NCBI GenBank assembly: GCA_902761035.1
Contig: CACWIW010000004.1
Location: forward strand, 3,981-67,980
Source of the DNA: an uncultured bacterium
GTDB lineage: Bacteria; Verrucomicrobiota; Kiritimatiellia; RFP12; UBA1067
Length of the DNA stretch: 64,000 bases
Direction of reading: 5' to 3'
Under the pieces are notes generated by a model. It was not told where the DNA came from, searched no databases, and saw only the letters and a list, made by a program, of their open reading frames with translations. Made by a program: the position numbers and the translations under genes. Below, one piece after another: positions 3,963 through 49,724 of the stretch; the stretch's first letter is position 1, and every line of letters begins with the position of its first letter.

Positions 3963-3973
3963 TGAGTGCCGAT

Positions 3974-4542: not shown

Positions 4543-5124
4543 CTATCGCTTCGCCGCCGCGACTCGCTTCACGATCTCGGCCACGGCCTTCCACTTCTTT
4601 CGGATGACGGACCGTTTCGCGAACTTGGCGGGAATCTTCCCCTTGTGCTTCACGAAGAGCATGAAGGTTTCGGCGAAGTCCTCCTGCGTGGCAGAAGTGG
4701 CGTATTCAGAGACATAGCGGGTTCCCCACCCCGCCGCGACGCACTCTTCCGCAGGATCTTCGCCGTAGGCGCCACCGAACGCGGCGCGGAACAATCCGCC
4801 CTTCTTCAGCGCGCCCGGATACAGGTCCGCGAGCGCGTGCCCGAACTCGTGACGAATCACGTCAAGCGCGTTCGCCTTCACGCCCAGGTCGCGCCAGAGA
4901 GCCGCGATTGGCAGATACATTGACGGGAATTCAATAGTCTTCTCCTTCTCCTGATAGCGTCCCATCGTCCCTGTAAATGTCATGCTCGGCGCAATCGTCA
5001 GGTACGTGCACCCGACCCCGTCCAGTTTTGATCCATCCCACAGGACGCCGAGACGCCAGAGTTCCATACGGACCTTGTTGTAGGCCCGATTCACTTCGTT
5101 GCGCGATGTGTAGATTTGGCCCAT
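4543..5124 (-). CDS. Putative zincin-like metallopeptidase (HEFGH motif)
   Basis: 193-aa ORF with IRHEFGHALAD (HExxH). An acidic EDFAETF segment lies ~55 aa downstream, where the third zinc ligand of gluzincins would sit. Last gene of the island operon. Confidence 0.55.
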   Translation of the reverse strand: MGQIYTSRNEVNRAYNKVRMELWRLGVLWDGSKLDGVGCTYLTIAPSMTFTGTMGRYQEKEKTIEFPSMYLPIAALWRDLGVKANALDVIRHEFGHALADLYPGALKKGGLFRAAFGGAYGEDPAEECVAAGWGTRYVSEYATSATQEDFAETFMLFVKHKGKIPAKFAKRSVIRKKWKAVAEIVKRVAAAKR

Positions 5125-5190
5125 GATGTTCTTTCATTACCCTGCTACGTACATTTCTCGTTGGGATTGCTTTCGAGTCCCAACAATCAC

Positions 5191-6177
5191 CTACCAGTTT
5201 AGCTTATCTTTCGGCTTCAGCTGCCTCAGCACTGTCATACCCTCGGCGTAGCCCTGCTTGATAAATCGCTTTGCGCACTCACCATTGAAGGCCAGAGTAC
5301 CAGACCAGATGCGAATCTGGCGAGAGAGAGCATCAACACTTTGTGTAAGTTTCCCTACAAATGGAACGTCGTTTAGGAAACCGAAACTTGGCAACAAGTC
5401 GCTTGCGACATCCAACAGTCCTCGCAGTGAGCTACGGGGACGCACCTCGACTAATGTTGTGCCGCGCGGGATGGTGGCATCAATCGCTTCCGGTTCGTCA
5501 GCGGCACAATTACACCGCACGACGATGATCGTACGGATGTCGGGCCGACGTTCGAGAATCTGGGAGACGGGGATGTTGTCCCCGCCCATTGCCTCCCAGG
5601 AACCATCGACATACCTCCTGCCGTTTAGATCCACCGGAGCAAATCCCCATGGGATGGCCGCAGAGGCAAGTAGCTGCTTGATTCTGTTGTCTGCGTTCAC
5701 TTCCTCGTTCAGAAAGAAACATTGTCTTTCATAGCAGTCCGAATCAAATGTGCTGAGCAATCCCCCTCGGCATTCAAGCGTAGTGGCGTAGACTTCCGGC
5801 GCCCCTTCTGGCCATATTCTAGGAAGCAGTCTAGAAAGAATCGTTTCCAGAGCGCTACGGTCAAGAAGCCCCTGGAACGGGAATGGTTTCCCCGACAACA
5901 CGTCTTTGAGGGCAACGATGAACTGACCCGGCACTAGATTTGAAAGATTTGGCGTGGCGATGTCACCGACTTTTGTGTGCCAGAACCGGCAAATCTTCTC
6001 CGGATCACGTAACGCAGCAAACGCCGCAGCGTTGATCGCTCCGGCGGAAGTGCCAGAAATCACGCTAACCCGATCGGCAAGACCGAGTTCGCACATCGCC
6101 TTCCAGACACCAGCCTGGAACGCCCCTTTCGCGCCGCCGCCAGAGAGGACGAGCCCAATTGAATCATCATTTCCCAT
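5191..6177 (-). CDS. Patatin-like phospholipase
   Basis: Oxyanion box LSGGGAKGAFQAG, nucleophile elbow GTSAGA (GxSxG), catalytic-Asp region YVDGS. 4 nt separate it from the M48 gene stop. Confidence 0.85.
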   Translation of the reverse strand: MGNDDSIGLVLSGGGAKGAFQAGVWKAMCELGLADRVSVISGTSAGAINAAAFAALRDPEKICRFWHTKVGDIATPNLSNLVPGQFIVALKDVLSGKPFPFQGLLDRSALETILSRLLPRIWPEGAPEVYATTLECRGGLLSTFDSDCYERQCFFLNEEVNADNRIKQLLASAAIPWGFAPVDLNGRRYVDGSWEAMGGDNIPVSQILERRPDIRTIIVVRCNCAADEPEAIDATIPRGTTLVEVRPRSSLRGLLDVASDLLPSFGFLNDVPFVGKLTQSVDALSRQIRIWSGTLAFNGECAKRFIKQGYAEGMTVLRQLKPKDKLNW

Positions 6178-6180
6178 ATT

Positions 6181-7017
6181 CTACCAACTCAGTTTTGCTT
6201 TTCCAATCGTTTCGCCGAGCGTAACGGCTGGACGATATCCTGCGAACCACTTCTTCACCTCTGCGGCACGGACGGCAGGATACGGATGCGAAGCATCCTT
6301 TATCATCCAGTTCTGCAGAAACTTACTCTTGCCAGAATCCTTCATGAACTTCTGGTATTCGGCGGCTTGTTGGACGAACTGCTCCATGTCCACGCGTTCG
6401 GTGATGCGCGTTCCACCTCCGGCAAGACGCATCATCGTGCGAGCGACGACATCAGCGTCATTTGTCACGTATGCCGCCACACGGTCAGCGGAAAACTCAC
6501 TCCGGCGAATCCAGTACATGAGCGCCCACTGCAGCGGCTCGGAGATGATGCCGAGACCAAACAATCCTCCAATGCCGCCCCCTGCGGAAACGAGCAGACT
6601 TGCAAGGGAATGGTAGAGAACATGTCGGCAGAGGATATGCCCGCATTCGTGCGCGATGACAGCCCTCAACTCTTCCTTGGAAAGTAAGTCGATGATACCT
6701 GAGTTCACGACGACGAACGGCTTGGTGTCACCGTATGTGTAGGCATTCGGGATCGGATCCATTTCAAGGAACATTTCCGGTTCCGGTATCTGAAGCGTTT
6801 CGCAAGTATCCTTCAGAATCGCATAAAGTTCGGGAAGTTGCGACGGCCCGAGCTTGATCTTTGAAGCCATGTTGATACCGTGCATCATGTCCTCGGTGAC
6901 AGACTGCATGAATTTCTTCATGAGCGTGTCAAGCCCCGGGATTGCCTGTAGCTTGTTCAACGCATCCCGATCTTCGGGGTGAATGAATGGTTTGTAGTCG
7001 ATGGGCATAGTGAACAT
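6181..7017 (-). CDS. M48-family zinc metallopeptidase
   Basis: AHECGHILCRH (HExxH) followed by hydrophobic segments and SEFSADR, typical of M48/HtpX-like peptidases. 278 aa. Confidence 0.8.
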   Translation of the reverse strand: MFTMPIDYKPFIHPEDRDALNKLQAIPGLDTLMKKFMQSVTEDMMHGINMASKIKLGPSQLPELYAILKDTCETLQIPEPEMFLEMDPIPNAYTYGDTKPFVVVNSGIIDLLSKEELRAVIAHECGHILCRHVLYHSLASLLVSAGGGIGGLFGLGIISEPLQWALMYWIRRSEFSADRVAAYVTNDADVVARTMMRLAGGGTRITERVDMEQFVQQAAEYQKFMKDSGKSKFLQNWMIKDASHPYPAVRAAEVKKWFAGYRPAVTLGETIGKAKLSW

Positions 7018-7050
7018 TCCTCTCTTTGAATGACATTGGATGAAAAATTA

Positions 7051-7791
7051 CTACTTTCCTTTCGAAAAAATCTTTCGGAAAAATCCGCTGCACCTTGTAC
7101 GAATCTCAGAAAACCACTTTCGCTTCGGCGGATGAAGTAACACATCAACATCTTTACGACAAGTTTCGAGCTCCTTGCGAAGCTCAGTTACTTCTTCTTT
7201 GAGAAGCTTATTTTCGTCTCTAGCACAATTGAGATTTGCCTTGGCGTCGTCAATAAGTCGCTGCAATTCTGCGACCTTGTCCGGCACTGCCTGAAACTGC
7301 TTCTCGGCACTTTCCACACGAACACGACAGCGCTCAACCTCATTAGAGAGAGTGTCTGTCTTACTCTTGAGCTCGCCGTTGTCTTTCAAGATACTGTCGA
7401 GATTCGTTATGACCGAGTTGACTAATGTTGTAAGTTCGGCACGGACTGCCTCACGCACAGCCTCGCGCACAGCATCAGGGATTACGTTGAGGCGCTGATC
7501 TAAGGCGTCTAAGCGTTTGCCGGCGACTTCAATACACTTCCACGCCGTCCACTCGCCTTTCGGAAGCGGTCCATTGAGCTGCTTGTATGCGGTAAACGCT
7601 TTATCACGCAATGATCGGAGTTCGGAGTATATGTCCTCTCCTGGATTGAGCTTGAGTTCATTGATAGCCCTCCAAAGCGCCTCCTTGTTCTCGTTTTCTT
7701 TATGAAAGGCATTCAAATGGTCTTGAAAATCATCCCAAGACGGAACATAGACATCACCTCCAAATACTCCTTGCGACACTCTTACCGACAT
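7051..7791 (-). CDS. Coiled-coil protein, unknown function
   Basis: 246-aa ORF. The C-terminal half has heptad-like, charge-rich sequence (ELKSKTDTLSNEVERCRVRVESAEKQFQAVPDKVAELQRLIDDAKANLNCARDENKLLKEEVTELRKELE). No motif I recognise. Confidence 0.6.
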   Translation of the reverse strand: MSVRVSQGVFGGDVYVPSWDDFQDHLNAFHKENENKEALWRAINELKLNPGEDIYSELRSLRDKAFTAYKQLNGPLPKGEWTAWKCIEVAGKRLDALDQRLNVIPDAVREAVREAVRAELTTLVNSVITNLDSILKDNGELKSKTDTLSNEVERCRVRVESAEKQFQAVPDKVAELQRLIDDAKANLNCARDENKLLKEEVTELRKELETCRKDVDVLLHPPKRKWFSEIRTRCSGFFRKIFSKGK

Positions 7792-7804
7792 AATGCGGCA
7801 CCTT

Positions 7805-8278
7805 TCATTTCGCCTTCCTCGACGAAGTCGGTCTCTTCTTAGCTATATTTCGTTTTGCCGTAACCGGCCTAGTACTGGATGACATTACAGTTTTCTTACG
7901 CACTGCGGACTTGCGTGTCTTTCCAATCTTCTGCTTCGCCTTCTCCATCGGCAATTCGACCCCAAGATGCTGTGCCAGCAAGCGGTAGTGGGGCGCAAGC
8001 AGTTCCTTGATCACCCCTTGGAATGTTTCACGCGCCGTCTCGACAATCTTCTCGATTTCTTTTTGTGCTACGGCGGCGATCTTTGCCGCAGAAGCTGCCT
8101 GAACAGACATCTTGGCAAGCTTGCGCTCCTGCGCTTCCATTTTACTGTCAATGTCGCCAATTTCCAGTCCGATTACTTCTGCCACAATATTCTTAACGTC
8201 GGCCCGCGTCAAGATATCGACCGTTCTAGTCTCGTCGCCGGTCAAGTGGCTTACAGTCACGAAAGTATGTCTAGCCAT
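7805..8278 (-). CDS. Small protein with Lys/Arg-rich C-terminal tail, unknown function
   Basis: The ORF track starts at 8305. I prefer the ATG at 8278 (MARHTFVTV), which follows GGAGGA by 5 nt and lies just after the upstream stop (8290). The tail is KAKQKIGKTRKSAVRKKTVMSSSTRPVTAKRNIAKKRPTSSRKAK. Confidence 0.55.
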   Translation of the reverse strand: MARHTFVTVSHLTGDETRTVDILTRADVKNIVAEVIGLEIGDIDSKMEAQERKLAKMSVQAASAAKIAAVAQKEIEKIVETARETFQGVIKELLAPHYRLLAQHLGVELPMEKAKQKIGKTRKSAVRKKTVMSSSTRPVTAKRNIAKKRPTSSRKAK

Positions 8279-8289
8279 AACCATCCTCC

Positions 8290-9045
8290 CTATGCGGCAT
8301 TCCACCGCTTTTTGAATTCCACCACGAAACGATCCACGATCCTATTGATCTCACGTTCCGGATTCGCTACCGCGTGTTTGAGCAACTCAAGCGGAAGATT
8401 CCTCAGGAAGTCACGAACGGGAATGAATCCGCTACGGACGAGCATCTCGTTGCGAAGAGCGTCATCAACTGCGGAGATACCAAGATCATCTTCCGCGTAC
8501 GAACGTATCTTCCGAATGTCTCTCGTGTCACCCTGAGAAACGGAATCTATCAAACCGAGGCCAAACCGCGCCCAAAGAATGTTAAGCGGAATGACGAAGT
8601 GGCCGTCCAGCGGGATTATCAAGGACTTCAACCCCTTGTTTTCCAGCTCAGCTTCGATCGTCTCAACGATGTCACCGTTTTCTTCAGGCGACCACTTCTC
8701 GGAATTCCTACAGTTCAGGAGAAAGATCATTTGCTTCCCCTGTTCTCGGACTCGTTTGAAAACATCTGCACAGGTTTCCCCTAGCGACTTGCTTTCATGG
8801 ACATAAATCACCACGTTCGACATGTCGATGGCAGATGCAGCCGTACCGTCATCCTCGCCATTCGCATCGAATCCCGGTGTGTCGATGATGGAAACGGCCG
8901 GTGACAGCGAATAAATGACGTTCTCATGCGTGGTAGAAAGTCCCCGCCCCATTTCGGCGACATTGCGACCAACAAGCGCATTTACCAATGATGATTTTCC
9001 GCGCTGAAATCCACCGACAATGGAGATTGTCAAGACTGTGCTCAT
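8290..9045 (-). CDS. Small dynamin-type GTPase (paralog of 11983-13074)
   Basis: G1 VGGFQRGKSSLVNAL, G3 IIDTPG. Shares the blocks FLLNCxNxExWSP and IEAELxNxG with the 363-aa paralog. ATGA overlap with the upstream 966-aa gene. Confidence 0.75.
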   Translation of the reverse strand: MSTVLTISIVGGFQRGKSSLVNALVGRNVAEMGRGLSTTHENVIYSLSPAVSIIDTPGFDANGEDDGTAASAIDMSNVVIYVHESKSLGETCADVFKRVREQGKQMIFLLNCRNSEKWSPEENGDIVETIEAELENKGLKSLIIPLDGHFVIPLNILWARFGLGLIDSVSQGDTRDIRKIRSYAEDDLGISAVDDALRNEMLVRSGFIPVRDFLRNLPLELLKHAVANPEREINRIVDRFVVEFKKRWNAA

Positions 9046-11942
9046 CCGGCCAACTCCTTTGTGACGGTTGAGGCAAAAGCCTCGATCCGCTTACGCAACG
9101 GTTCAATGACATTAATGCGTTCGGCCCTGTTTGCCTCGGCGATGCGCTTGCGCTCTTCAAGGGATTTGCCAAACTGTGTTTCAGGTTCCCTTACACGCTC
9201 TGCCTCAAAGTCGGTCTTTAGTGAACCAAGACGCGAAATGAGTTTTTGTCGTATTCCCTCAAGACCTTGTCTAAGCTGATCTTCCAGAGGCTGTCTGATT
9301 TTGTCTTGAAATCGGATATCATTGACAGAATCCTCTATATTCTTGCGGAATTTGCTCGCCGTCTCCACAATCAAAGCATTGCGCCGCTGTTCCTTGGCAA
9401 TTTTGTTTCTTTCTGGCGCAGATGGGTCAATACCTCCTATCTTTGCCAATTCAGCAAAGAGCCAAAGCAAAAAGTCCAACAGGTTTTTGAAATTATTCAG
9501 CAAAAAAGTCTTGATATCTGTCGCACCGTGGACGATGTCAATCACCTGCCGGTTTTCCAATAGGACATTGGACAGATTATCGCATAACTCGCCGACGTCT
9601 TCCTCGGGGACGCTGGGAGGCTCAAATCCATCCAACATTTCGCTCTCGTTGATCTTCCGTTCCTTCCAAAGTTCGTGGATGTCACTGCAGACAAAAGCCA
9701 ACGATTTTCGAAGCCGTCCAACACCATCGCCTTGACGCCACTGCTCCAGTGCGCGGCTCATGGCACCCTTCAAAGCCCCCGCAAATTTCGGGGTTATGTC
9801 ACGCTTGATAGCTTGAGCCAGCTTCTCGGCGCTCCAGAAGAATCCGGCATTCACGGTTGATTCGGCCAAATGATAGGAAAGGTCAGTCACCAATCGATTC
9901 CCGATGGCAAGCTCAAGAATTGATCGAGCCAAACTATTTACCATTGAGTCAAGGCCCTCTCCCAAAACAGATCTTTCAACTTTCCCATTGGCGCGATCTA
10001 CAAAATCAGCTAATTGCCTTTTCGCATCTTCGACCTTGACCTTCCATTCTGCCTCTTTTTCCTCCGCAGCCTTCTCGGAGGCTCTAAGAACACCTTCGTA
10101 GGCGCTGAGCGCCTTGGCCGCACGGTCGCTGCCGCGATTCACGAGAATGCTTTCGGCCTTAAGCGGAATGATGTCATTGTTTAACTTGGAGATGATTACA
10201 TCCAATTGGCTCGCCTGCCGAGCAATTTCTACGGATGCCGACGTTAATTCATCGATACTTGCGAGATTATCATCTTCAATCATAGTGCCGACTTTATGAA
10301 CCATCTTCACCCACATGGAAGACAACGAAGAAGCTCCGTCCTTGACTTTAGCGTCACGGCGCATATTTGCCTCATCCAAATCGCTGAACAAGTCGTGGTG
10401 TTTCAAGAGCAATTCACCCTGCGTGGAAAGGAAAGCCAAGCGCGCGCTGTAAGGGACAACATCCAAAGATCGTCCCATATTGGCGAGCAAGCTTTTCGTC
10501 ACATCTAGAATCTCCGTTGATTTGACATCCCATTCTGACCAAATATTGGCCGTGGTCTGGATTTTTCCATCAAGTCCCCAATTGGCGATCCGCTGAATGG
10601 CCCTCTTGTCATGATCACCCAACTGCTTGTCGCCATAAATTAGATACCAGACAGCGTCGGCATGGCGAATCGCTCTCTCCGCCACACAGGTGTCAAAGGC
10701 ATTGGCAAAGAGGCCGGGGCAGTCCGTAATGCGGCAGCCCAGCCGTTGGAGATTTTCGGAATGGAGTCGAACCAAAACGGAACGAACAAATACAAATGCA
10801 ACCTCATCAAACTCAAAATGGGCGTTGCAGCCATCCCGCCACCGTGTCTCCCAGTCTTTTGGGAAAGCGACTAGTTTTTGAAATTGATTGATGGGCAGCG
10901 TAGCGTTCTCAACCAGTTCCTTTTGCCCATCCGTTCCGAAAAAACGGAGCTGGAGCGTGGCGATGCGCAATTGGTCGAGGCGATCTCGCTCCCAGTTTGC
11001 CTTGTCAGATTCCCACTTTCGCCACAGACCATCTGCGGTACTGCGAAGAAGGTTCATTATTTCCGGTCTTCGCAAATCGGCCAACTTAGGAAACCCGTCA
11101 TCGGTATCGATAGCATCTTCATATTCTTCGTCGGAGAGATTTGAGTTTAAGCTCCGCAATTCTTTTGAAGCCATCAGCTCTCCACGAAGGATGGTTGAAA
11201 TTCCCAGGGAAAGTTCATCTGGGGACTTATAACTTACCTCTGCCCATTCGGCAAGGCCGTCCTTCGTCTCGTTTCCCGAAATATTCTGGGCTGTGACAAC
11301 GGCAGCGCTCGTCTTAATGCCACTGCCGCGCGGGGAGATGTCGCGACCATCGCAGAGTGCGTTGAAAGTGGTGGACTTCCCGCCCTGATACTCGCTGACG
11401 AGGGCGATTTCAAAGGCATCCTCCTGACACTTACACGTTGTCAGGCGAAGTTCATCGGCGTATTTCTTTGGCACGTTCAGAGCGGAAGCTTCCTTCAAGA
11501 GGGCAAGCAATTCGTTGCGGCGGAATTCATACCATCTCGCACGGTCTTTGATATTGACGATCCGTGTTTCATCAGTTTTCGCCGTCCAGATGATATCGCC
11601 GTTTTCAAAATGTGAGATTCGGTCGTTCGGATCGCTGTCGCCATCGTAGGCTTCCTCGTCAGAAATCGGATGCCCGAGTGAACCTCGTTTGCCTGAAATG
11701 TCGAAAGCCCCCCACTCCTTGTACCAGCGCCTACCAATCGTACCATGGATTTCATGGGGTTCGGTCTCGCCGGGGCGTATCACAATCGCGCACCAATCCT
11801 GGTAGTTACACTGCCATCCACCGTCGAGGGTACGATAGATTCCAGGTTCTATTGGTTCGCCAACATAATATCCGCGTTGCTTCATCCAGTCGTATTTGGC
11901 CTGGAATTTGGAAAGGACATCAGCTGGGATGTTAGCGTTCAC
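9042..11942 (-). CDS. Large dynamin-like protein with N-terminal LGFP-like repeats (paralog of 13083-15650)
   Basis: G1 SEYQGGKSTTFNAL (aa 183-191), G3 ITDCPG (aa ~405-410), then ~550 aa of helical stalk-like sequence. It aligns by eye along its whole length with the 855-aa ORF. The extra ~128 N-terminal aa resemble LGFP repeats. Confidence 0.8.
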   Translation of the reverse strand: MNANIPADVLSKFQAKYDWMKQRGYYVGEPIEPGIYRTLDGGWQCNYQDWCAIVIRPGETEPHEIHGTIGRRWYKEWGAFDISGKRGSLGHPISDEEAYDGDSDPNDRISHFENGDIIWTAKTDETRIVNIKDRARWYEFRRNELLALLKEASALNVPKKYADELRLTTCKCQEDAFEIALVSEYQGGKSTTFNALCDGRDISPRGSGIKTSAAVVTAQNISGNETKDGLAEWAEVSYKSPDELSLGISTILRGELMASKELRSLNSNLSDEEYEDAIDTDDGFPKLADLRRPEIMNLLRSTADGLWRKWESDKANWERDRLDQLRIATLQLRFFGTDGQKELVENATLPINQFQKLVAFPKDWETRWRDGCNAHFEFDEVAFVFVRSVLVRLHSENLQRLGCRITDCPGLFANAFDTCVAERAIRHADAVWYLIYGDKQLGDHDKRAIQRIANWGLDGKIQTTANIWSEWDVKSTEILDVTKSLLANMGRSLDVVPYSARLAFLSTQGELLLKHHDLFSDLDEANMRRDAKVKDGASSLSSMWVKMVHKVGTMIEDDNLASIDELTSASVEIARQASQLDVIISKLNNDIIPLKAESILVNRGSDRAAKALSAYEGVLRASEKAAEEKEAEWKVKVEDAKRQLADFVDRANGKVERSVLGEGLDSMVNSLARSILELAIGNRLVTDLSYHLAESTVNAGFFWSAEKLAQAIKRDITPKFAGALKGAMSRALEQWRQGDGVGRLRKSLAFVCSDIHELWKERKINESEMLDGFEPPSVPEEDVGELCDNLSNVLLENRQVIDIVHGATDIKTFLLNNFKNLLDFLLWLFAELAKIGGIDPSAPERNKIAKEQRRNALIVETASKFRKNIEDSVNDIRFQDKIRQPLEDQLRQGLEGIRQKLISRLGSLKTDFEAERVREPETQFGKSLEERKRIAEANRAERINVIEPLRKRIEAFASTVTKELAG

Positions 11943-11982
11943 GGATTAACTCCTTTGCGATGAATGTTGGGTTGGGTGATGG

Positions 11983-13074: not shown

Positions 13075-13082
13075 TGCTGCAC

Positions 13083-15650
13083 CTAAGCCGAAAGATCGAC
13101 AATGACCGCGTCCTTGAACGCATCGATCCGCTTGCGCAGCGGCTCGATGGTCTGAGTACGAATGGCATGGATTTCGGCGGCAATCTTCTTGCGCTCTTCG
13201 ACAGACTGTCCGAACATCTTGTCCGGTTCGGCGACACGCTCTTTCTCAAAGTCTTTCTTGAGATCTTCAAGCCTGTTACGCAGAATATCCTCGATTTTCT
13301 GCACCGAACCTACAAGTTCTTCGTTCAGCGGTTTGACAATGCCGTTGCGGAAGGTAGAATCAGATACGGCCTTTGCAATCTCAGGACGGACTTTACCGAA
13401 GATTCTATCTATTTCCCGTTTCAGTCTCTCAATCTCCGCTCGTTCACGCTCCTCCTCACTGCGAGTCAAATCCCAGATGGCCTTTCCGATGAAGACAGCA
13501 GCTGTAAGTGGGAAACAGACAATTCCTCCAATGAACCCAAGAAGCATTGGCCAGATAACCTCCCAGATAACCGTGAAAATGCCTCTCCGCCCTTTCTCTG
13601 CTATTTCGCTGATATTTGTGCCACCCATGACTTTTTCAGAAAGATTTCCGCAAACACCCGTTATGTCTTCCAGAGAAACAGTTGGCGTTGAAAAACCACG
13701 AAGCATCTCAACGTCGCTTAACTGACGATCTGCCCACAAATCATGAATCTCGTCACATACATTAGACAACGAACGACGAAGGCGATCAAGGGAATTGCTA
13801 CCTGATTTAGCCTTCCATTCTTCGATTGCGCAAGTCAATGCGTCTTTGAAGTCCTCCGCCAAGACAGGTGTCATTCGAGCGACAAGATCCCGTTCCATGG
13901 CTTTCCGCGTCATGTAGAATTCGCGGCTGGTAATCCTAAGTATGGCTGCGATGTCATTTGCGAGGATATCAATGAATTGATCGCCTAAGGCCATGTCAAC
14001 AATCTCCGTTGCCATAACCTTGGCGAGCATGTCTTTCGATCCCGCGAAAGACGAACGATCGATTGTTGTATTGGCCCTTTCGACAAAATCCGCCAGCTGC
14101 CTGCGGGCGTCTTCAACCTTGGCGCGCCATTCTTCTTCCTTTGCCAGAGCGGCGTCTTCAGTTGCCTTCAGAACGCCTTCGTAGGCGAGAAGCGCCTTGG
14201 AGGCGCGGTCGCTGCCGCGGTCAACGAGGATACTTTGCGCCTTCTGGGGAATTATCTCGTTTTCAAGACGGGAGAGAATACCGTCGAGCAGACTTTCGCG
14301 GCGCACGACGGCAATGGATTCAGCATCAAGTTCCTGGATGTCCTCAACATTCTCGAGCTCAGTTGACCCTCCGACACGTCGTACCATCTTAGCCCACATG
14401 GTTTCCGGCGCAGGATCACCTTCCTTGACCTTTGCGTCGATGCGCATGTTGGCTTTGTCGAGACTGGAGAAAAGCGATGCACGGTTGAGAAGCAGGTCGC
14501 CCTGCATGGCGAGGAACGCGAGGCGGGCGTTGTAAGGAAATACCTCAACGGCATGTCCTGCATTGGCGAGGGCGGCCTTTGTGGCGGGAATGATCTCGGC
14601 TATCTTCTGCTCATGCGGCCCCTTGAGGTTACTCGTGGCCTCGATTTTCCCGAGCATCCCCATCGCGGCGATGGCGCGGATGATTTCAAGATCCTTCTGC
14701 CCAATCTGCTTCTCGCCGTTTATAAGATACCAGACGGCATCGGCGTTGAGGATTGTGCGCCGCGCCACACTGGTGTCGTATGCGTTGGCAAAGAGGCCGG
14801 GACAGTCCGTTATGCGGCAGCCGAGCCGCCGGAGATTCTCCGAGTGTATACGCACGAGGACAGACTGCACAAATACAAAGGCCACTTCGTCAAGCGTGAA
14901 CTGCGAGTCCGGCCCGTTCATCCAGCGGACCATCCAGTCTTTAGGGAAGGCGATCAGCTTCTGGAACTTGTCGATGGGCAAAACAGCCTGCGAAACCATC
15001 TTATGGTATTCTGCGCTATTGTAGAAACGCAATTGCAGCGTGGCAATGCGCAATTCGTCCAGCTCGTCGTCAGAAAGCGACGTCTTGTCGTTGCGCCACT
15101 TGCTCCAGAGCACGTTAGTTGCACTCTTTAGCGCGGTGCGGCATTCGTCGTTGTCAAGATCGACAAGGCCAGGAAAGCCATCGTCCGTCGCGATTGCCTC
15201 CGCATATTGCTCGTCGGACAACTTGGAGTTGAACCTGCGGAGAGCCTCGGAATCGATAAGCGGACGGCGGAGGATTGTGGAAAGGCTGAGCGCTATAGCA
15301 CCAGGTGTCTTGAAGGTCACTTCCGCCCATTCCGGCAAGCCGTCTTTCGTTTCGTCACCGGCGATATTCTGCGCCGAAATGACTGCGGCGCTCGTCTTGA
15401 TGCCGCCACCGCCGAGCCCGCGCGGGGAGATGTCGCGACCGTCGCAGAGCGCGTTGAATGTCGTGGATTTGCCGCCTTGGAACTCACCAACGAGGGCAAT
15501 CTCAAAGGAGTCCTCCTGGCACTTGCGCGAGGTTTGACGGAGTTCGTCCGCGTACTTTTCGGGAAGATCTAACGCCGTGGCCTCCCGAAGGAGTTCGAGG
15601 AGTTCGTTTCGACGTGTTTCGTACCACTTGGCTGTGTTGTCGTTAGTCAT
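13083..15650 (-). CDS. Large dynamin-like protein with hydrophobic hairpin
   Basis: G1 GEFQGGKSTTFNAL (aa 55-63), G3 ITDCPG (aa ~280-285), helical stalk. Hydrophobic hairpin GIFTVIWEVIWPMLLGFIGGIVCFPLTAAVFIGKAIW near the C-terminal third, at a BDLP paddle-like position. Confidence 0.8.
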   Translation of the reverse strand: MTNDNTAKWYETRRNELLELLREATALDLPEKYADELRQTSRKCQEDSFEIALVGEFQGGKSTTFNALCDGRDISPRGLGGGGIKTSAAVISAQNIAGDETKDGLPEWAEVTFKTPGAIALSLSTILRRPLIDSEALRRFNSKLSDEQYAEAIATDDGFPGLVDLDNDECRTALKSATNVLWSKWRNDKTSLSDDELDELRIATLQLRFYNSAEYHKMVSQAVLPIDKFQKLIAFPKDWMVRWMNGPDSQFTLDEVAFVFVQSVLVRIHSENLRRLGCRITDCPGLFANAYDTSVARRTILNADAVWYLINGEKQIGQKDLEIIRAIAAMGMLGKIEATSNLKGPHEQKIAEIIPATKAALANAGHAVEVFPYNARLAFLAMQGDLLLNRASLFSSLDKANMRIDAKVKEGDPAPETMWAKMVRRVGGSTELENVEDIQELDAESIAVVRRESLLDGILSRLENEIIPQKAQSILVDRGSDRASKALLAYEGVLKATEDAALAKEEEWRAKVEDARRQLADFVERANTTIDRSSFAGSKDMLAKVMATEIVDMALGDQFIDILANDIAAILRITSREFYMTRKAMERDLVARMTPVLAEDFKDALTCAIEEWKAKSGSNSLDRLRRSLSNVCDEIHDLWADRQLSDVEMLRGFSTPTVSLEDITGVCGNLSEKVMGGTNISEIAEKGRRGIFTVIWEVIWPMLLGFIGGIVCFPLTAAVFIGKAIWDLTRSEEERERAEIERLKREIDRIFGKVRPEIAKAVSDSTFRNGIVKPLNEELVGSVQKIEDILRNRLEDLKKDFEKERVAEPDKMFGQSVEERKKIAAEIHAIRTQTIEPLRKRIDAFKDAVIVDLSA

Positions 15651-15671
15651 TTTTCATTCACTTTTGTCTTC

Positions 15672-15695
15672 CCCACCCGTCTTGCGACGGGTGGG
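15672..15695 (-). other. Intercistronic GC-rich hairpin (10-bp perfect stem, 4-nt loop)
   Basis: CCCACCCGTC-TTGC-GACGGGTGGG, between the stop at 15707 and the start at 15650. No U-tract follows on the transcribed (minus) strand. Confidence 0.5.
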
Positions 15696-15706
15696 ATTAA
15701 GGGTAT

Positions 15707-18016
15707 TCAGAATGTCTTAGTAAGTGCAGCTAGGGCACCAGCGGCGGCATTGGTGAGGCGTGTCTTCTCGTCTGGAGCGGGCGTGAGTTCGTCACGCCAA
15801 TTGGCGACGATGATGCGGAATGCTTCATCAGAGTTCTTAGATCGGATGAAAGCGTCAAAAAATGTTTCCACGACGGCCGCGAAGATGCGGTTGGGACAGA
15901 AGCTCTGGGCGGAACCCATCGATTGCTCCAGCATCGCAATCACGTCGGCGCGAACCGAGGCGTCCGGGATTGCCTTTTCAAAGAGCCTCTTCTTACGCTC
16001 CAACGCGGCGGTATTTCCGGTGCCGGACTTGCGCATGGCCGTTGAATACGCTTCGGCCGCTTCCTTCAATTTCGCGTCGAGCGCAGCTAGGGTTTCCTGC
16101 ACGGCGTTCGCGTCGGACTCGGACACGTCCGGAAATCGCTTAGGTTCAAGGGAATCCGTTGCCGCATGGAGCAACGGTTCCAGATGGAAACGGAACTGGA
16201 GGTCGAATTCCGCAATCCTCCGAAGCGGAGCGGAAAGCTCTCGCAGGATTGCCGCATCCCCGGGATACTTCGTGCGTTCGTCGATTCGGTCGGCCAGGGC
16301 GACGATTTGGGCCCTGACGGCAGCCAGCCGTGCGGAGGGGCTGTCCGAGGCCGGGGTTGCTTTCGCAGGAACGAACCCATTCAAGTACCGGTTGGCCCGG
16401 AGCGAATCCATGACATCCGACAACAGCCGCGCGATCCGGTCGGTCAGATGCAGGTCCATCGTCTCCCATTGGTCGCGGAATTTCACGCGGAAATCGTTGA
16501 TGAAGAGCTGCGGCCGCCCGTGTTCCTTCGTAATCGCGCTCTTGACGACCCGACGCAATTCTTCGGGCGAACCGTATCCGAATCCTTCTGCTCCCCAGCG
16601 GAGAACTTGTTCCTTGACGTTGGAAACGGCGTCGTTCCACTCCTTGTCCTCTCCGCGCGTCTTTTCCACGGCGGAATCCCGCTGGCGTTCCAGAATGTCC
16701 TGGGTTTCGTTGTGGAGCATTGCCGCGAACACATTGGGATTCACGGAATCCAGACCGAGCGCAGGGACCTTGGTTCGGGCAGACTCCACTGCATTTCGAG
16801 CGGAGGCAAGGGCCGCTTCCGCTTTTGCGTTTTGGCGGGACAGGATGGCCGCGTCGATGACGGGGAGGTTTTTCGCGAGGAAATCCAGAATGCGCGGCAT
16901 CGCAACTTGATTCACCTTGTCCTTGCAGTGGGCGTCGCATTCAATTGTCTCGAACGGACGATCAACCTTCGCCCGGAAGTTCTCTACACAACTTTGTAAC
17001 CGATCCGGCGTCGAAGCATCATTAAAGAGAACTAACGTGAATTTCGTCTGATCCTCAACATCTGGAACGACTCTCTGCATCGCATCCAGCGCGGTAGTGT
17101 CGGCCTTCAACCATTCGACACGGCCATCTATCGGCACCTTTTTCACAAGTATCGTGATGTCGCAGCTGTTCCGAAGATTTTCAGTCTGAGCTTTCGCCAG
17201 ATTTATGCCCGCCTCGCCTATGCCAGGGAGATCGACAACACGGAGTTTGGCGAAGTCAGTGGCCGGGAACGGAGCCTTAACCACGAGGTTCGCGACAGCT
17301 AGAAACGGACCTGCTTTCGTCTTTCCATCCTCAGGGTATGCCACAAACTGACGTAGTTCCGGCAGTGAGATTGAGACGGCCCTTCGTCCTGTAAGATAGG
17401 ACTCGTATCCCGTCAGATGTAATTTTGCGTGCTCCAGTCTCTTTATAATATCGAGGTTGTTCTGGTTCTCCTCAACGCCCTGCGGAAGTTCCACGTGTAG
17501 GTCACGGAAGGCTGCCATGCTGGTCGGCGCGGGGATTCCGATCTCACTGCACAAAGGTGCGATAACCTCGGAGAGGAATGATTCAGGCGAGTGAAAGTCC
17601 GCGATTGCGGCCTTTTCGTCCAGACTGTTCTCAATCAGACTTCGGACGGCCGTGGTACAGTATAGGTCGCCAGTAGGGATTTCGTTTTCTGAGAGCCCTG
17701 TTGCGGATTGGATGAATGTGCTTTTCCCCATACCCGCCGTACCGCCGATGCCGATGCACAGAGTTTCCCGTGCGAAACGGACACGGACAAGGGCATAGTC
17801 AGCGAGAACGCCTCGCACGGCTTCCGCAGCCGAACGAAGCTGGACGGACGCTCCGTGCAGGTCGGAATTGGCGCATTCGGCGGCTTCCGTTTTAGCGATG
17901 ACTCCCTCCAGCGCGATTTCACGAGATTTCCACGCGGCAATGGCCGCGTCAATATCTTTCAGGTGCGCTGCGCGTGTGGCGAGGATAGCATCAAGTTGGG
18001 CTGAGATGTTGCTCAT
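15707..18016 (-). CDS. Divergent P-loop GTPase, dynamin-like (LeoA/HP0731-type by recall)
   Basis: 769-aa ORF. G1 GIGGTAGMGKSTF (aa 88-100), G3 VVDLPGIGEAG (aa 260-270), a long helical C-terminus. No obvious hydrophobic hairpin. Confidence 0.65.
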   Translation of the reverse strand: MSNISAQLDAILATRAAHLKDIDAAIAAWKSREIALEGVIAKTEAAECANSDLHGASVQLRSAAEAVRGVLADYALVRVRFARETLCIGIGGTAGMGKSTFIQSATGLSENEIPTGDLYCTTAVRSLIENSLDEKAAIADFHSPESFLSEVIAPLCSEIGIPAPTSMAAFRDLHVELPQGVEENQNNLDIIKRLEHAKLHLTGYESYLTGRRAVSISLPELRQFVAYPEDGKTKAGPFLAVANLVVKAPFPATDFAKLRVVDLPGIGEAGINLAKAQTENLRNSCDITILVKKVPIDGRVEWLKADTTALDAMQRVVPDVEDQTKFTLVLFNDASTPDRLQSCVENFRAKVDRPFETIECDAHCKDKVNQVAMPRILDFLAKNLPVIDAAILSRQNAKAEAALASARNAVESARTKVPALGLDSVNPNVFAAMLHNETQDILERQRDSAVEKTRGEDKEWNDAVSNVKEQVLRWGAEGFGYGSPEELRRVVKSAITKEHGRPQLFINDFRVKFRDQWETMDLHLTDRIARLLSDVMDSLRANRYLNGFVPAKATPASDSPSARLAAVRAQIVALADRIDERTKYPGDAAILRELSAPLRRIAEFDLQFRFHLEPLLHAATDSLEPKRFPDVSESDANAVQETLAALDAKLKEAAEAYSTAMRKSGTGNTAALERKKRLFEKAIPDASVRADVIAMLEQSMGSAQSFCPNRIFAAVVETFFDAFIRSKNSDEAFRIIVANWRDELTPAPDEKTRLTNAAAGALAALTKTF

Positions 18017-18053
18017 TGGAACTGTTCCTGTTTGGGTTGATTGGTAAAATCGA

Positions 18054-18073
18054 CGGGGACGCTAGCGTCCCCG
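18054..18073 (-). other. Intercistronic 20-nt perfect palindrome / hairpin
   Basis: CGGGGACGCTAGCGTCCCCG between the stop at 18082 and the start at 18016. On the minus-strand RNA it is followed by UCGAUUUUA, so it could be a weak attenuator. Confidence 0.45.
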
Positions 18074-18081
18074 CCTGTGGA

Positions 18082-19800
18082 TTAAAGAGCGGCAAGTGCC
18101 GATTCGAGATCAGCCTTGGCGCTTTCAAGTGCGGCGCGGTCAGCAGATTCTGCGGGAGACGCGGCAAGAGCAGAACGGATGGCTTCGACTTGTGCCTTGT
18201 TATAGACCTCCATTGCCGCCTTGACATCGACAAATGTCTTTTCTATGCCATCATTTACCTGCTTCATCACCTGCGTAGACACATTCGGCTTCGCTTCCTC
18301 AAGTCCTTTCTTAACCTGCGAAAGGATCAACTTCTTCACACCCCATTCCGCAGGCGAAAAGTTCTCGCCGAGTAACATCTTTGCGATGATAGCCGTAATC
18401 CACCCAAAAGGCAGGATCACATTGAGGAGAGCTACTTCTATGGCCTTGATGACGAGCGTTGGGACTTTTGCCGCAATCGGCTTCTCGATTTTCAATTCAT
18501 CCGAAATGAAAACATTCCACGGCTTCCGACATTCATCCATATTCTTCGCATAGCGATCAATCAGGCGATTGACATCGGACTTGAGCTTGAGCGCAATGAT
18601 GGAAACCTTGTCCTGCAGATCAGACCTGAGTGTCGTACTCGCCCTCTCAAGGACCTTCTTCATCGCATCAACATCCTCCTTCTCGGAGAATTCCGCATAG
18701 AACTTGTCAAACACTGCATCGACTGCGAGATTGACATCGCGTTTGATGTCGTCGTTCAGCGCGCTCACTTCATCCTGGAACCGCTCGAACGCCAGTTCGG
18801 CCTGCTCCTTGAAGCGGGCGACTTCGGTTTCAACTCTGGCGGCAAGTGCTGCGCGCTCGGCATCGGATTTACCTGCTGTCGCAAGTTTGGTAGCAATGCC
18901 AGCGAGGTCTTTCTCAAGTTCAACTCGAAGGAGATTCGCAATCTTCTCCTCGCGACCGGGAAGTGCGTTATCCGCAAGGAACTGGCGGATAGTCATGCGG
19001 ATTTCGGCGACATCTGACATGATGTCCTCAACCGACGAATCAAAGCAGTACATCTCGACGGGGATGTTGTCGCGGCCCATGTTAGTGAGATCGGCCTTAA
19101 TCGTGCGAAGAATATCCTTGCGCTCTTCCTGATCCTGATTCATTGTCTTTGGATTGAATGAAGCGAGAACCATTAGGCGGGAGATACCGTTTCTGCCCAT
19201 GATTTCCTTGCGCAGAAGACCACGTTCTCTGTCTCCTAGCGTCTTATCGCCGCGGACAACGAGGAGTGCCACATCTGCAGTGGGGATTATGCGCCAGGTT
19301 GTATCAAGCAGGAGTTCCTGATTAGGATCGTCGAGTCCAGGCGTATCCACAACTGTGAAACCGCGAAGTGCTTCATTCGGAACTTTCACGGCAACACGGG
19401 CACGCTTCTTTGCGAGCTCGGCACGCGTTTCCATTGCACTGGAAACCGTTACATCATTCACATCATCCTCAGTCGGGTTCGGTATCGTCTTCGCGAGCGT
19501 CTCGCCAGTTCGGCTGGTATCAGTCCAGTCATAAACTTCAAGTATCGGTGACGAAGCGTATTCGATGTCGGTGGCGACAGCCGTCGTGCAAAGCCCCCGC
19601 CCTTCGGAGAGGAGCGGTTTGTCGCCGAGAAAAACGCGATTGATTAGCGTCGATTTGCCGACCTGGTATTCGCCGACGACAGCGACGCGGTACTGGGGAT
19701 TCTCCAATCCGGCAATCTGCTTCTCGAGATCGACGGGGAGTGTGAGGCCGTGCGCCTTAACAGCGCGTGCGGCGTTGCGGATGGCTTCCTGTTTGCTCAT
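18082..19800 (-). CDS. Bacterial dynamin-like protein (BDLP/LeoA-like)
   Basis: 572 aa. G1 VVGEYQVGKSTLINRV (aa ~42-57), G3 VVDTPGLDD (~aa 150), helical stalk. Hydrophobic hairpin PTLVIKAIEVALLNVILPFGWITAIIAKMLL. Confidence 0.8.
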   Translation of the reverse strand: MSKQEAIRNAARAVKAHGLTLPVDLEKQIAGLENPQYRVAVVGEYQVGKSTLINRVFLGDKPLLSEGRGLCTTAVATDIEYASSPILEVYDWTDTSRTGETLAKTIPNPTEDDVNDVTVSSAMETRAELAKKRARVAVKVPNEALRGFTVVDTPGLDDPNQELLLDTTWRIIPTADVALLVVRGDKTLGDRERGLLRKEIMGRNGISRLMVLASFNPKTMNQDQEERKDILRTIKADLTNMGRDNIPVEMYCFDSSVEDIMSDVAEIRMTIRQFLADNALPGREEKIANLLRVELEKDLAGIATKLATAGKSDAERAALAARVETEVARFKEQAELAFERFQDEVSALNDDIKRDVNLAVDAVFDKFYAEFSEKEDVDAMKKVLERASTTLRSDLQDKVSIIALKLKSDVNRLIDRYAKNMDECRKPWNVFISDELKIEKPIAAKVPTLVIKAIEVALLNVILPFGWITAIIAKMLLGENFSPAEWGVKKLILSQVKKGLEEAKPNVSTQVMKQVNDGIEKTFVDVKAAMEVYNKAQVEAIRSALAASPAESADRAALESAKADLESALAAL

Positions 19801-19950
19801 GTTGTTTCTTTTCCTTTCACGATTCTTGTCTTCCTGATGGCTTGCGCCCTTTCAGACATCGGCGGGGGCGGAAAACGGAAAACTCCTCCGATGCATCGCA
19901 AGAGATGAAGTCACTTGCGACGCTTCCCATGGCCGCAGGGGCGGCGGTCG

Positions 19951-30877: not shown

Positions 30878-30884
30878 CGCGTGT

Positions 30885-49721: not shown

Positions 49722-49724
49722 GCA

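Follow-up and report, generated by a model that had tools for sequence, protein, structure and literature searches.

Four distinct families of dynamin-like protein (DLP), here called G1, G2, G3 and G4, travel together as a conserved core across Kiritimatiellia, Lentisphaeria, Verrucomicrobia, Planctomycetes, Desulfobacterales, Bacteroidales and other lineages. In the chromosome of an uncultured gut Kiritimatiellia bacterium, within the 64,000-nucleotide stretch of DNA that we analysed (the window), this core is part of a strain-variable island of eleven genes (~16 kb; Table 1). The large-plus-small module G3-G4 occurs there twice, its second copy being the LGFP-tagged pair G5-G6, so that a four-family core with a duplicated module gives the window its six GTPases. 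The original prediction of a six-GTPase architecture was right as to number, but that number reflects the duplication, specific to this lineage, of a large DLP and a small GTPase within the four-family core. We consider it about evenly probable that the cluster is one conserved multi-component DLP conflict system, triggered by invaders and related to Eleos but distinct from it.

Table 1. Position of the island, its genes and the neighbouring tRNA gene in the window
Feature	Coordinates	Strand	Evidence
Strain-variable low-GC island, eleven genes	4181..20314		GC profile; empty-site and junction alignments
tRNA-Gln(CTG)	4066..4139	+	ARAGORN; junction mapping
G1, 572-aa membrane-anchored dynamin-like GTPase	18082..19800	-	Dynamin_N; hairpin; motifs; position in loci
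G2, 769-aa soluble divergent dynamin-like GTPase	15707..18016	-	AlphaFold/Foldseek; invariant motifs; position
G3, 855-aa large dynamin-like GTPase	13083..15650	-	AlphaFold/Foldseek; LeoBC/LeoA profiles
G4, 363-aa small GTPase	11983..13074	-	Dynamin_N; Cj-DLP match; position after large DLP
G5, 966-aa G3 paralog with N-terminal LGFP-repeat domain	9042..11942	-	BLASTP; Pfam
G6, 251-aa stand-alone dynamin-type G domain	8290..9045	-	Dynamin_N; MMR_HSR1; BLASTP against G4
X7, small protein, 157-166 aa	7805..8278	-	Translation; positional homologs
X8, 246-aa coiled-coil protein, basic amphipathic C-terminus	7051..7791	-	Pfam; positional homologs
X9, M48 zinc metallopeptidase	6181..7017	-	Peptidase_M48 E=1e-23
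X10, patatin-like phospholipase	5191..6177	-	Patatin E=2e-27
X11, HEFGH zincin of 193 aa (Peptidase_Mx), final island gene	4543..5124	-	PF15887 E=1.2e-7, above cutoff

The island is horizontally acquired and varies between strains. Its GC content is 50-57% versus ~65% in the GC profile, and conspecific contigs lack it: the alignment of two empty-site contigs (L062 and L063) to the window stops at 4180. In a further contig (L002) the island is 99.99% identical but has a different left flank, and homology there stops at 20314. The eleven genes had been proposed to form one unit, and they behave as one, since the block is 99.99% identical in two genomic contexts and missing from a third, and its parts co-occur in many genomes. 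All eleven minus-strand reading frames (4543-19800) lie where they were predicted and are tightly packed, with -16 to +66 nt between neighbours; promoter and terminator scans of these genes scored no better than shuffles. The tRNA-Gln(CTG) gene lies 41 nt off the island's right end and is kept in the empty sites, and neither an integrase nor a tRNA-derived direct repeat was found for the island. Next to relatives of the cluster, a transposase of the ISL3 type or a toxin-antitoxin pair (PIN/HTH) is seen.

All six GTPases belong to the dynamin superfamily, as profile and structure searches agree, and every P-loop/DxPG motif pair quoted in the original prediction is present. Four of the six pass the Pfam Dynamin_N gathering score (G1, 2e-13; G4, 8e-12; G5, 1.3e-6; G6, 7e-12, which also matches MMR_HSR1 at 8e-12), and G3 falls slightly below it (24.9 bits, cutoff 27). 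G2 has no match in Pfam, PADLOC, NCBIfam or PDB sequences; its AlphaFold model (pLDDT 82.9) matches SynDLP (1e-11) and BDLP (1e-10) in Foldseek, as well as IniA and mitofusin/Fzo1. The G3 model (pLDDT 81.1), which we also count as support for G5, matches SynDLP (4e-12), IniA, BDLP and the Campylobacter protein Cj-DLP. Across all four core families the P-loop, switch-I Thr and DxPG are at least 90% conserved. With Dynamin_N in four of six proteins and clusters, both identical and related ones, on many independent contigs, the six-GTPase pattern is far beyond chance.

The GTPases differ in build. G1, which opens the cluster in most related loci, has its P-loop (GEYQVGKST) at residue 43, DTPG at 152 and a hydrophobic hairpin at residues 450-478; the 90% motif conservation holds among its 22 homologs. 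G2 combines an N-terminal helical hairpin, a G domain at ~86-360 and a long helical stalk, with no hydrophobic segment; its motifs are GGTAGMGKST and DLPG, the pattern GGxxxxGKST, TT and DLPG is invariant in 31 homologs, and the family comprises 1129 clusters at 50% identity. In G3 (291 homologs) the P-loop (GEFQGGKST, residue 55) and DCPG (282) lie ~225 residues apart, and a second hairpin (694-725) and a C-terminal coiled coil follow. Both hairpins had been predicted and are real (Kyte-Doolittle >1.6); no other GTPase of the six has one, G5 lacking a strong one. They suggest, from sequence, that G1 and G3 are anchored in the inner membrane from the cytoplasm. G4, the partner of G3, is a dynamin-type G domain (GGFQIGKST, DTPG, conserved among homologs) with an Ala-rich helical tail, and stands after the large DLP in most loci. 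G5 is 50% identical to G3 across 850 aa (BLASTP) and carries the LGFP domain (Pfam 1.3e-6, above cutoff, as is its Dynamin_N match); in its motifs (SEYQGGKST, DCPG) the first P-loop Gly is Ser, a position that varies between G, A and S across the G3/G5 family, and the proteins P0040-P0048 are homologs of the LGFP type. G6 (GGFQRGKSS, DTPG) is a paralog of G4 (33% identity, BLASTP 7e-42) and overlaps its partner G5 by 4 nt.

These genes co-occur well beyond the window. The order G1-G2-G3-G4 recurs amid unrelated flanks (L007-L015, L018, L148-L150), with G2 between G1 and G3 in all loci with sufficiently long flanks, and G1-M48-G3-G4 is found in L033, L039, L040 and L044. Closer relatives keep an eight-gene unit, G1-G2-G3-G4-X7-X8-M48-patatin, and L011, L068, L148 and L149 carry it with G3 or G5 and G4 or G6 in the module positions. 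Module duplications are seen in several lineages, and the N-terminus of the G3 family is swapped between none, LGFP, TIR (the fusions keep the TIR Glu motif) and Hsp70-like domains. In keeping with the original reading, which knew of no such architecture, we found none described in the literature that we searched or in PADLOC v2; models for G2, X7 and X9 are all missing from PADLOC v2.

The five downstream genes are as originally described, with Pfam agreeing for the enzymes, and gene callers bring minor corrections to the starts of X7 (8278, 157 aa) and X9 (7008, 275 aa). X7 has a short conserved motif near its N-terminus, is helical in the middle and ends in a polybasic tail; it matches no family in Pfam, PADLOC or NCBIfam, and has homologs in the same position in L011, L068, L148 and L149. 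X8, with positional homologs in L011, L068 and L148, has only coiled-coil-type Pfam matches, all below cutoff; its positional analogues in other clades have a TM or amphipathic tail, and their homology is not significant. X9 has HECGH at residue 123, a Gly-rich hydrophobic segment (140-158) and Glu174 downstream, and its active-site residues are invariant in 8 cluster-associated homologs; homologs lie inside DLP clusters at 11 other loci and adjoin a patatin on two truncated contigs. In its M48 subfamily, 76/80 loci have no DLP neighbour and 2 more have only a weak (22-24-bit) G1 match several kb off, so the family as a whole does not share a dedicated partnership of DLP and protease. X10 keeps its GGGAKG oxyanion loop, GTSAG serine and DGS aspartate, is weakly similar to CBASS and anti-phage lipases, and occurs together with M48 in L011, L068, L069, L148 and L149. 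An X11-type zincin also ends the related cluster in L148. The predicted lipase and protease partners are present, but the lipase and the Mx zincin are accessories that belong to a single clade and not to the family at large.

Eleos, a two-gene LeoA/LeoBC system, protects against jumbo phages, for which both P-loops are required (Millman et al. 2022, bioRxiv 10.1101/2022.05.11.491447). Both it and the cluster are accessory, carried on islands, and contain neighbouring dynamin-like GTPase genes, with a membrane-anchored GTPase among the products; the split ETEC form likewise has a stand-alone G-domain gene. PADLOC LeoBC models match G1 (3e-21), G3 (1.5e-16) and the G-domain region of G6 (2.5e-19), and LeoA models match G1 (4e-12) and G3 (4.5e-14). 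If the locus were an ordinary Eleos beside unrelated GTPase, protease and lipase genes, these matches (E 1e-12 to 1e-21) would be its support; however, they are modest and span only portions of the Leo models, G2 matches none, LeoA (4aur) is undetected by sequence from G1 or from the G3 profile and ranks 36th-38th among G2/G3 fold matches, after SynDLP, IniA, BDLP, mitofusins and the Campylobacter DLP pair, and a block of at least four DLP families keeps its order and content across phyla. We regard that explanation as largely refuted and very improbable. Eleos has two DLPs versus four co-conserved families with coiled-coil, protease and lipase genes, and its phage phenotype is demonstrated, whereas the cluster is known from genes and models. 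The cluster is related to Eleos yet distinct, and the suggested membership as an "expanded Eleos" is not supported.

The cluster also resembles paired bacterial DLPs. DynA of B. subtilis is a two-DLP fusion, and DynA and mycobacterial IniA/IniC are characterised bacterial DLPs that work in membrane repair and stress. Like DynA, IniA/IniC (6j72) and Campylobacter jejuni DLP1/DLP2 (5owv), the cluster has a BDLP/mitofusin-class fold and paralogous DLP genes side by side, and the known pairs are hetero-oligomers on membranes; IniA is a top fold match of G2 and G3, and the only PDB sequence match of G4 is Cj-DLP (5owv_C, weak, 6.5e-6). The fold alignments, however, have ~10-14% sequence identity, and there are two DLPs in the known systems versus four families and six copies in the window, where a subunit made up of a G domain alone, small tailed coiled-coil proteins and partner hydrolases come in addition. 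By description, G1 further resembles the MfnL family of dynamin-superfamily proteins, which comprises TbMfnL from Trypanosoma brucei and homologs in bacteria, chiefly PVC (bioRxiv 10.1101/2023.06.28.546890). The architecture described for that family is shared by G1: a size of ~62 kDa, a G domain at the N-terminus, coiled coils, and near the C-terminus a pair of neighbouring TM segments that face matrix or cytoplasm. Proteins of Kiritimatiellae and Lentisphaerae, hosts of the cluster, are among the bacterial members listed, but that paper handles them singly, with "operon" occurring 0 times. In mitochondria, the stress-activated M48 protease OMA1 and the rhomboid Pcp1 turn long anchored OPA1 and Mgm1 into short forms; here an anchored dynamin is encoded with an M48 peptidase in PVC clusters, including the window, and with a catalytically intact rhomboid in eight Desulfobacterales clusters. 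The likeness is one of protease class and gene association, whereas cleavage was seen in mitochondria, and X9, whose subfamily is mostly found without DLPs, matches only HtpX models in NCBIfam; convergence or coincidence may account for the parallel.

These comparisons feed a serious rival to a defence role, possible though on the unlikely side, in which a DLP hetero-oligomer would sense and reseal or remodel damaged inner membrane, as modelled on DynA and IniA/IniC. The M48 enzyme would be an HtpX/OMA1-type stress-activated protease, serving quality control or turning anchored DLPs into soluble forms, and the patatin would remodel lipids where repair occurs. The nearest folds of G2 and G3 (SynDLP, IniA and BDLP rather than LeoA), the M48 or rhomboid genes of OPA1- and Mgm1-processing classes, the HtpX matches of X9, a DUF445 membrane protein recurring in nine loci and the housekeeping flanks of many clusters (e.g., mreBCD, AP endonuclease, IF-2/RbfA) all favour it, and Hsp70-like fusions with a GrpE-like neighbour hint at a part in the homeostasis of proteins or membranes. 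Yet the island is dispensable, low in GC and strain-variable, TIR-fused variants and a patatin effector are what one typically finds in conflict systems, module duplication and N-terminal swapping are unusually frequent for housekeeping machinery, and the X9 subfamily is not confined to DLP clusters. An improbable alternative follows the first proposal for ETEC LeoABC, with DLPs, lipase and proteases aiding the formation of outer-membrane vesicles or releasing cargo, for instance enzymes that degrade polysaccharides: the host Kiritimatiellia is rich in glycoside hydrolases, a SASA esterase gene flanks the island, L148 has a cellulase gene within its cluster, and LeoABC was first tied to virulence by its pathogenicity-island location, according to work cited within bioRxiv 10.1101/2022.05.11.491447. 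But no evident signal peptide or feature of the outer membrane is seen in any of the eleven proteins, the hairpins suggest anchoring on the cytoplasmic side of the inner membrane, glycan genes are not conserved partners across related loci, and the TIR fusions are left unexplained.

For the invader-triggered conflict system, TIR-fused homologs, the patatin and island mobility make a defence role plausible; domain swapping in the G3 family, module duplications and the likeness of X10 to anti-phage lipases point the same way, some neighbours are DpdF, IetA, DrmC, MkoA or type II MTases, and Eleos provides a precedent. Against it stand weak defence-gene enrichment (at most 2 matches per family among 148 neighbours, as raw counts), the housekeeping flanks, the absence of relatives among viral contigs, and the repair and stress work of DynA and IniA/IniC, which fits membrane maintenance equally well. 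If the cluster is such a system, anchored G1 and G3 and soluble G2, G4, G5 and G6 would assemble into hetero-oligomers at the inner membrane, on the side of the cytoplasm, and their G domains would mediate the pairing as in Campylobacter DLP1/2, DynA and LeoA/LeoBC, and the X7 and X8 tails would bind membrane or polyanions. Attack by a phage or other invader would perturb the membrane, and GTP hydrolysis would then power membrane tethering or remodelling; the M48 protease would act as a stress-responsive regulator, possibly cleaving an anchored DLP, and the patatin lipase would be the output aimed at the membrane.

The minus strand carries 11 co-directional ORFs at 4543-19800, separated by gaps of −16 to +66 nt, in agreement with the 11-gene block of the original prediction. 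Six encode dynamin-like GTPases (G1 to G6), and each of these has a GxxxxGK[ST] P-loop, a switch-I Thr, and a DxxG switch II. The P-loop and DxPG strings quoted in the original prediction are all present in the six proteins, with the P-loop of G5 starting with Ser, not Gly; across the family this first position is G, A, or S. Within the G1, G2, G3, and G4/G6 families, the P-loop, switch-I Thr, and DxPG are ≥90% conserved. The anticipated match to Pfam Dynamin_N (PF00350) holds above the gathering score for G1 (51 bits), G4 (46), G5 (28.9), and G6 (46), but G3 scores just below the cutoff (24.9 bits vs. 27) and G2 has no match, and precomputed PF00350 matches exist on many G3 homologs and on two G2 homologs. 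G2 was also unmatched elsewhere in Pfam, in PADLOC and NCBIfam, and by profile search of PDB sequences. Searches of PDB sequences with the G2 profile, the G3 profile, and G1 found nothing, and the only match of G4 was a weak one to Cj-DLP.

Predicted structures place G2 and G3 among bacterial dynamin-like proteins (DLPs), as the original prediction had envisaged, and mitofusins. The AlphaFold model of G2 (31 homologs in the input, pLDDT 82.9) matched SynDLP (E = 1e-11), BDLP, IniA, Fzo1/mitofusins, and the Campylobacter DLP pair in Foldseek, and the G3 model (pLDDT 81.1) gave the same match list. Against SynDLP, BDLP, IniA, Cj-DLP, and mitofusin, E-values for the two models range from 1e-12 to 1e-6, and both models show the G domain and helical neck/stalk (BSE plus trunk) of the BDLP/mitofusin fold. 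Given these models, the profile matches, and the conserved motifs, all six GTPases belong to the dynamin superfamily, BDLP/mitofusin class. G4 and G6 are G-domain-only subunits. Hydrophobic hairpins are seen only in G1 (450-478) and G3 (694-725), the two proteins for which they had been claimed. The large DLPs G3 and G5 share 50% identity over 850 residues and the small proteins G4 and G6 share 33%, and this paralogy means that the window carries two modules of a large DLP plus a small G-domain protein, both downstream of G1 and G2. G5 has an LGFP domain added at its N-terminus.

Genes of the dynamin cluster and the adjacent tRNA
Feature	Coordinates	Strand	Product
G1	18082-19800	-	dynamin-like GTPase, 572 aa
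G2	15707-18016	-	dynamin-like GTPase, 769 aa
G3	13083-15650	-	dynamin-like GTPase, 855 aa
G4	11983-13074	-	dynamin-like GTPase, 363 aa
G5	9042-11942	-	dynamin-like GTPase, 966 aa
G6	8290-9045	-	dynamin-like GTPase, 251 aa
X7	7805-8278/8305	-	small helical protein, polybasic tail
X8	7051-7791	-	coiled-coil protein, amphipathic tail
X9	6181-7017	-	M48 peptidase
X10	5191-6177	-	patatin lipase
X11	4543-5124	-	Peptidase_Mx zincin
tRNA-Gln	4066-4139		tRNA-Gln

Homologs of these dynamins recur in several conserved layouts. We found 291 matches for G3 and 133 for G2, both sets unannotated, and a G2 profile search of 1.84 billion representatives returned 1129 clusters at 50% identity (558 at E ≤ 1e-30). 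Lentisphaeria, Kiritimatiellia, and gut metagenomes show the order G1-G2-G3-G4 between unrelated flanking regions, and G2 lies between G1 and G3 in every locus with long enough flanks. Lentisphaeraceae, Thermoguttaceae, and Phycisphaerales have the layout G1-M48-G3-G4. In Desulfobacterales, G1-G3-rhomboid comes after a weak G2-like gene, and Bacteroidales and Akkermansia pair a long G3 with G4. The layout nearest to that of the window, G1-G2-(G3|G5)-(G4|G6)-X7-X8-M48-patatin, is found in four loci (L011, L068, L148, and L149), one of which (L148) additionally carries Peptidase_Mx, and module multiplication is also seen in L033, L050, L054, and L150. G3-type genes, the 855/966-aa family singled out for a neighborhood analysis, recur with the other core DLPs across loci, and the block that had been proposed as one functional unit recurs as a conserved gene neighborhood. 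Judged by gene order, it is a functional unit whose conserved core consists of four DLP families, the lipase and the Mx zincin being clade-specific additions. Promoter and terminator scans of the cluster gave counts equal to those of shuffles and hence no evidence for an operon.

Variants differ mainly in fused domains and neighboring genes. The N-terminus of G3-family proteins carries no extra domain, an LGFP domain, a TIR domain, an Hsp70-like ATPase, or a ~460-residue extension without assignment, and the TIR-fused homologs keep the conserved TIR Glu motif. The small GTPase G4 has C-terminal TPRs (710-716 aa) in Desulfosarcina cetonica JCM 12296 (L026) and Methanosarcina sp. UBA7 (L029), respectively a cultured sulfate reducer and an archaeal MAG. 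Recurrent neighbors include DUF445 (nine loci), a GrpE-like protein, and the Pfam "Double-GTPase" (DO-GTPase2). The Hsp70-like fusion (L023:952-4611, E = 8e-28), a GrpE-like gene in one cluster, and a Double-GTPase gene in another (L056:4897-5862, L040:6668-7633) hint that some variants are regulated by a chaperone-type layer.

The enzymes downstream of the dynamins were assigned as expected. X9 matches Peptidase family M48 (PF01435) with 84.5 bits (cutoff 20.3), and its HECGH motif and downstream Glu (E174) are invariant across the alignment; X10 matches Patatin (PF01734) with 97.3 bits and has complete catalytic motifs (GGGAKG at 13, GTSAG at 42, and DGS at ~190). Bacteroidales/Akkermansia clusters encode a HECAH protein that is a candidate divergent M48. 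Neither X7 nor X8 matched a family; both are small, helical or coiled-coil, and have a polybasic or amphipathic tail. In most clades, G4 is followed by small coiled-coil proteins that end in a basic or amphipathic tail or in a TM, and hhalign comparison of X7 and X8 with these showed no significant homology, the best probability (55%) being that between X7 and X8 themselves.

An M48 or rhomboid protease is recurrent next to the anchored dynamins. The rhomboid is found in eight Desulfobacterales loci (L019, L021, L022, L028, L032, L036, L052, and L055), where it directly follows the G3-type dynamin, is ~322 aa long with a weak DnaJ_C-like tail, and is catalytically intact (GASG, AHVGG). In mitochondria, the stress-activated M48 peptidase OMA1 cleaves L-OPA1, and Mgm1 is a substrate of the rhomboid Pcp1; the bacterial gene arrangement recalls these pairs, a suggestive parallel. 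We also scanned metagenome contigs from the protease side (80 loci). X9-like M48 genes (43-51% identity to X9) have no DLP neighbor in 76/80 loci, which led us to reject the X9 subfamily as a dedicated DLP-processing protease. In 2/80 loci there is only a weak 22-24-bit G1 match several kb away, and DLP or patatin neighbors are confined to two nearly identical islands. The protease was therefore recruited rather than co-evolved as an obligate partner, and M48 recruitment to DLP clusters possibly happened more than once. The stand-alone genes (L070-L147) have a conserved operon of their own, with an ECF-sigma-like 190-aa protein, 217-aa and 85-aa proteins, and a 175-aa membrane protein with a terminal zinc ribbon, which may form a module for regulated proteolysis that is common among bacteria of the gut.

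Known bacterial DLPs occur singly, in pairs, or as the split LeoABC triplet, and what most of them do in the cell is unclear. Cj-DLP1/2, DynA, and IniA/IniC resemble the proteins described here in fold, but here four families occur together with extra enzymes. The original prediction labeled the cluster a candidate expanded Eleos/LeoABC-like system. Eleos is a two-gene anti-phage system of LeoA and LeoBC that guards against jumbo phages, needs both P-loops, and lies near defense systems ~60% of the time (bioRxiv 10.1101/2022.05.11.491447). The dynamin superfamily and the idea of paired DLPs are indeed common to both, but the two-gene (or split three-gene) architecture is replaced here by four DLP families and further conserved genes. 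PADLOC LeoBC/LeoA models match G1 (residues 273-545 to LeoBC 280-536), G6 (to LeoBC 78-263), and G3 (residues 3-70 to LeoA 7-79) only partially, G4 and G5 more weakly, and G2 not at all. With G1, G4, and the G3 profile as queries, phmmer/hmmsearch of PDB sequences did not find LeoA (PDB 4aur), and it ranked 38th for G2 and 36th for G3 in Foldseek. Because both architecture and LeoA similarity fail to agree, we do not class the cluster as Eleos; the genes and motifs of the original prediction are confirmed, and its expanded-Eleos label is right only in part. A further family for comparison is MfnL, a new dynamin-superfamily family with Trypanosoma brucei TbMfnL (UniProt Q57XN3; ~62 kDa, two C-proximal TMs, matrix-facing) as type member and bacterial homologs "mainly in the PVC group," including Kiritimatiellae and Lentisphaerae (bacterial MfnLs include MBO7223041.1, NLB69313.1, MBV8881356.1, and WP_093253540.1); the preprint does not discuss operons (bioRxiv 10.1101/2023.06.28.546890). 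G1, a candidate homolog, agrees with MfnL in architecture and taxonomy. Our literature search found no paper that connects operons of bacterial DLPs with an M48 protease, a rhomboid, or a patatin, and the original prediction likewise named no described architecture with six GTPases and these partners. The multi-dynamin system is real, conserved, and apparently undescribed.

In the window, the cluster lies on an island with a GC content of 50-57% vs. ~65% in the flanks. Two contigs from near-identical strains (L062, L063) have the identical flanking ABC ATPase without the island, their alignment to the window ending at 4180, and a third (L002) has a 99.99% identical island with another left flank, homology stopping at 20314; the island therefore spans ~4181-20314 (16.1 kb). 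It is strain-variable and located in a recombination hotspot. Adjacency to a tRNA, low GC, and presence/absence polymorphism are all as in tRNA-associated islands; we found no integrase gene among island and flanking ORFs and no direct repeats from the tRNA 3′ end or att-like repeats at the island ends. The hotspot (4066-4180, 20250-20420) has at least three configurations among near-identical strains: the island with a SASA esterase flank (window, L001), the island with a cytidylate-kinase flank (L002), and an island-free site where metK adjoins the tRNA directly (L062, L063). The left end of the island (20275-20420) holds a GC-rich palindromic element of ~125 bp (inverted repeat 20277-20303 / 20372-20398), flanked on each side by a perfect copy of a 21-nt direct repeat (GGCGGCTCGGCGGGACGCCTC; 20275 and 20400). 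We rejected the repeat as a tRNA-derived att, as it is part of this small element, which may be a REP/MITE-like recombination substrate. Upstream of metK, the empty-site strains (L062:2138-8327, L063:801-7029) encode a MoxR-type AAA_5 ATPase, a 154-aa protein, a VWA protein, a CesT-like chaperone, and a 628-aa protein, which may be another variable module of the hotspot.

The contigs derive from rumen and gut metagenomes, with the island present in ERR3211443, ERR3211439, and the STEW19 assemblies. The host is an uncultured Kiritimatiellia, and the window outside the island is a glycan-degrader chromosome, with an RNase E/G 69-75% identical to named Kiritimatiellae MAG proteins. The RNase E/G ORF (44918-47482, 854 aa) is probably too long at its N-terminus, its homologs all being ~550 aa and covering 64% of it. 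A 1593-aa minus-strand ORF (21911-26692) has no Pfam or PADLOC match and contains an internal repeat of ~600-660 nt with ~71% identity (about 22987-23654 vs. 24994-25652). A second low-GC patch (28000-30900, 52%) holds a C5 cytosine DNA methyltransferase (29129-30877) with strong type II MTase matches and a ~190-aa N-terminal extension, as well as small ORFs without assignment (28158-28568, 28820-29149); it is possibly an orphan MTase or what is left of an RM system or a prophage. An ATPase with AAA_14 and DUF4143 (58479-59831, minus strand) also lies within a low-GC patch (55%). Positive AT skew (0.10-0.22) at 1-4000 and 46000-50000 is unusually strong relative to the rest.

What the system does can be read in several ways. 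We favor a heteromeric membrane-bound DLP machine used in defense, a reading with about an even chance of being correct, for which we infer complex formation, trigger, and hydrolase roles alike. Island mobility, the TIR and patatin modules, domain swapping, module duplication, and occasional DpdF, IetA, DrmC, MkoA, toxin-antitoxin, and ISL3 neighbors all point to conflict or defense, and the Eleos precedent would support it by analogy. The main rival, a role in membrane stress or maintenance, seems less probable to us but is a serious candidate. Several observations count against defense or are neutral: DynA and IniA have membrane-repair roles, housekeeping flanks are frequent, defense matches were sparse in a PADLOC census of 148 neighbors (raw counts, no baseline), and none of the viral contigs searched carried relatives of the cluster.

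A further reading, which we regard as unlikely, is that the clusters are the native context of bacterial relatives of the mitochondrial MfnL dynamins, with G1 of MfnL type, working as protease-gated dynamin machines. By analogy, a membrane-stress-activated M48 (PVC) or rhomboid (Desulfobacterales) would clip the hairpin-anchored DLP, and clipping would switch the DLP assembly between anchored and soluble states with the logic of OMA1/OPA1 and Pcp1/Mgm1. If true, dynamin switching by protease would have been invented in bacteria, or would be a remarkable case of convergence, coupled here to lipase or TIR outputs for immunity.

The cluster may represent a new anti-phage or membrane-surveillance system of gut and sediment bacteria, and the TIR, Hsp70, and LGFP tags of its variants suggest that sensing or output is modular. 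The system is widespread and unannotated, with ~560-1100 clusters at 50% identity for the G2 marker family alone. It offers a concrete heteromeric dynamin machine for reconstitution, and experiments are feasible because a related cluster occurs in the cultured D. cetonica. Four distinct dynamin families are co-inherited, frequently together with a membrane protease and, in one clade, a phospholipase. The system is a possible bacterial counterpart to the protease-regulated mitochondrial dynamins and the MfnL family.
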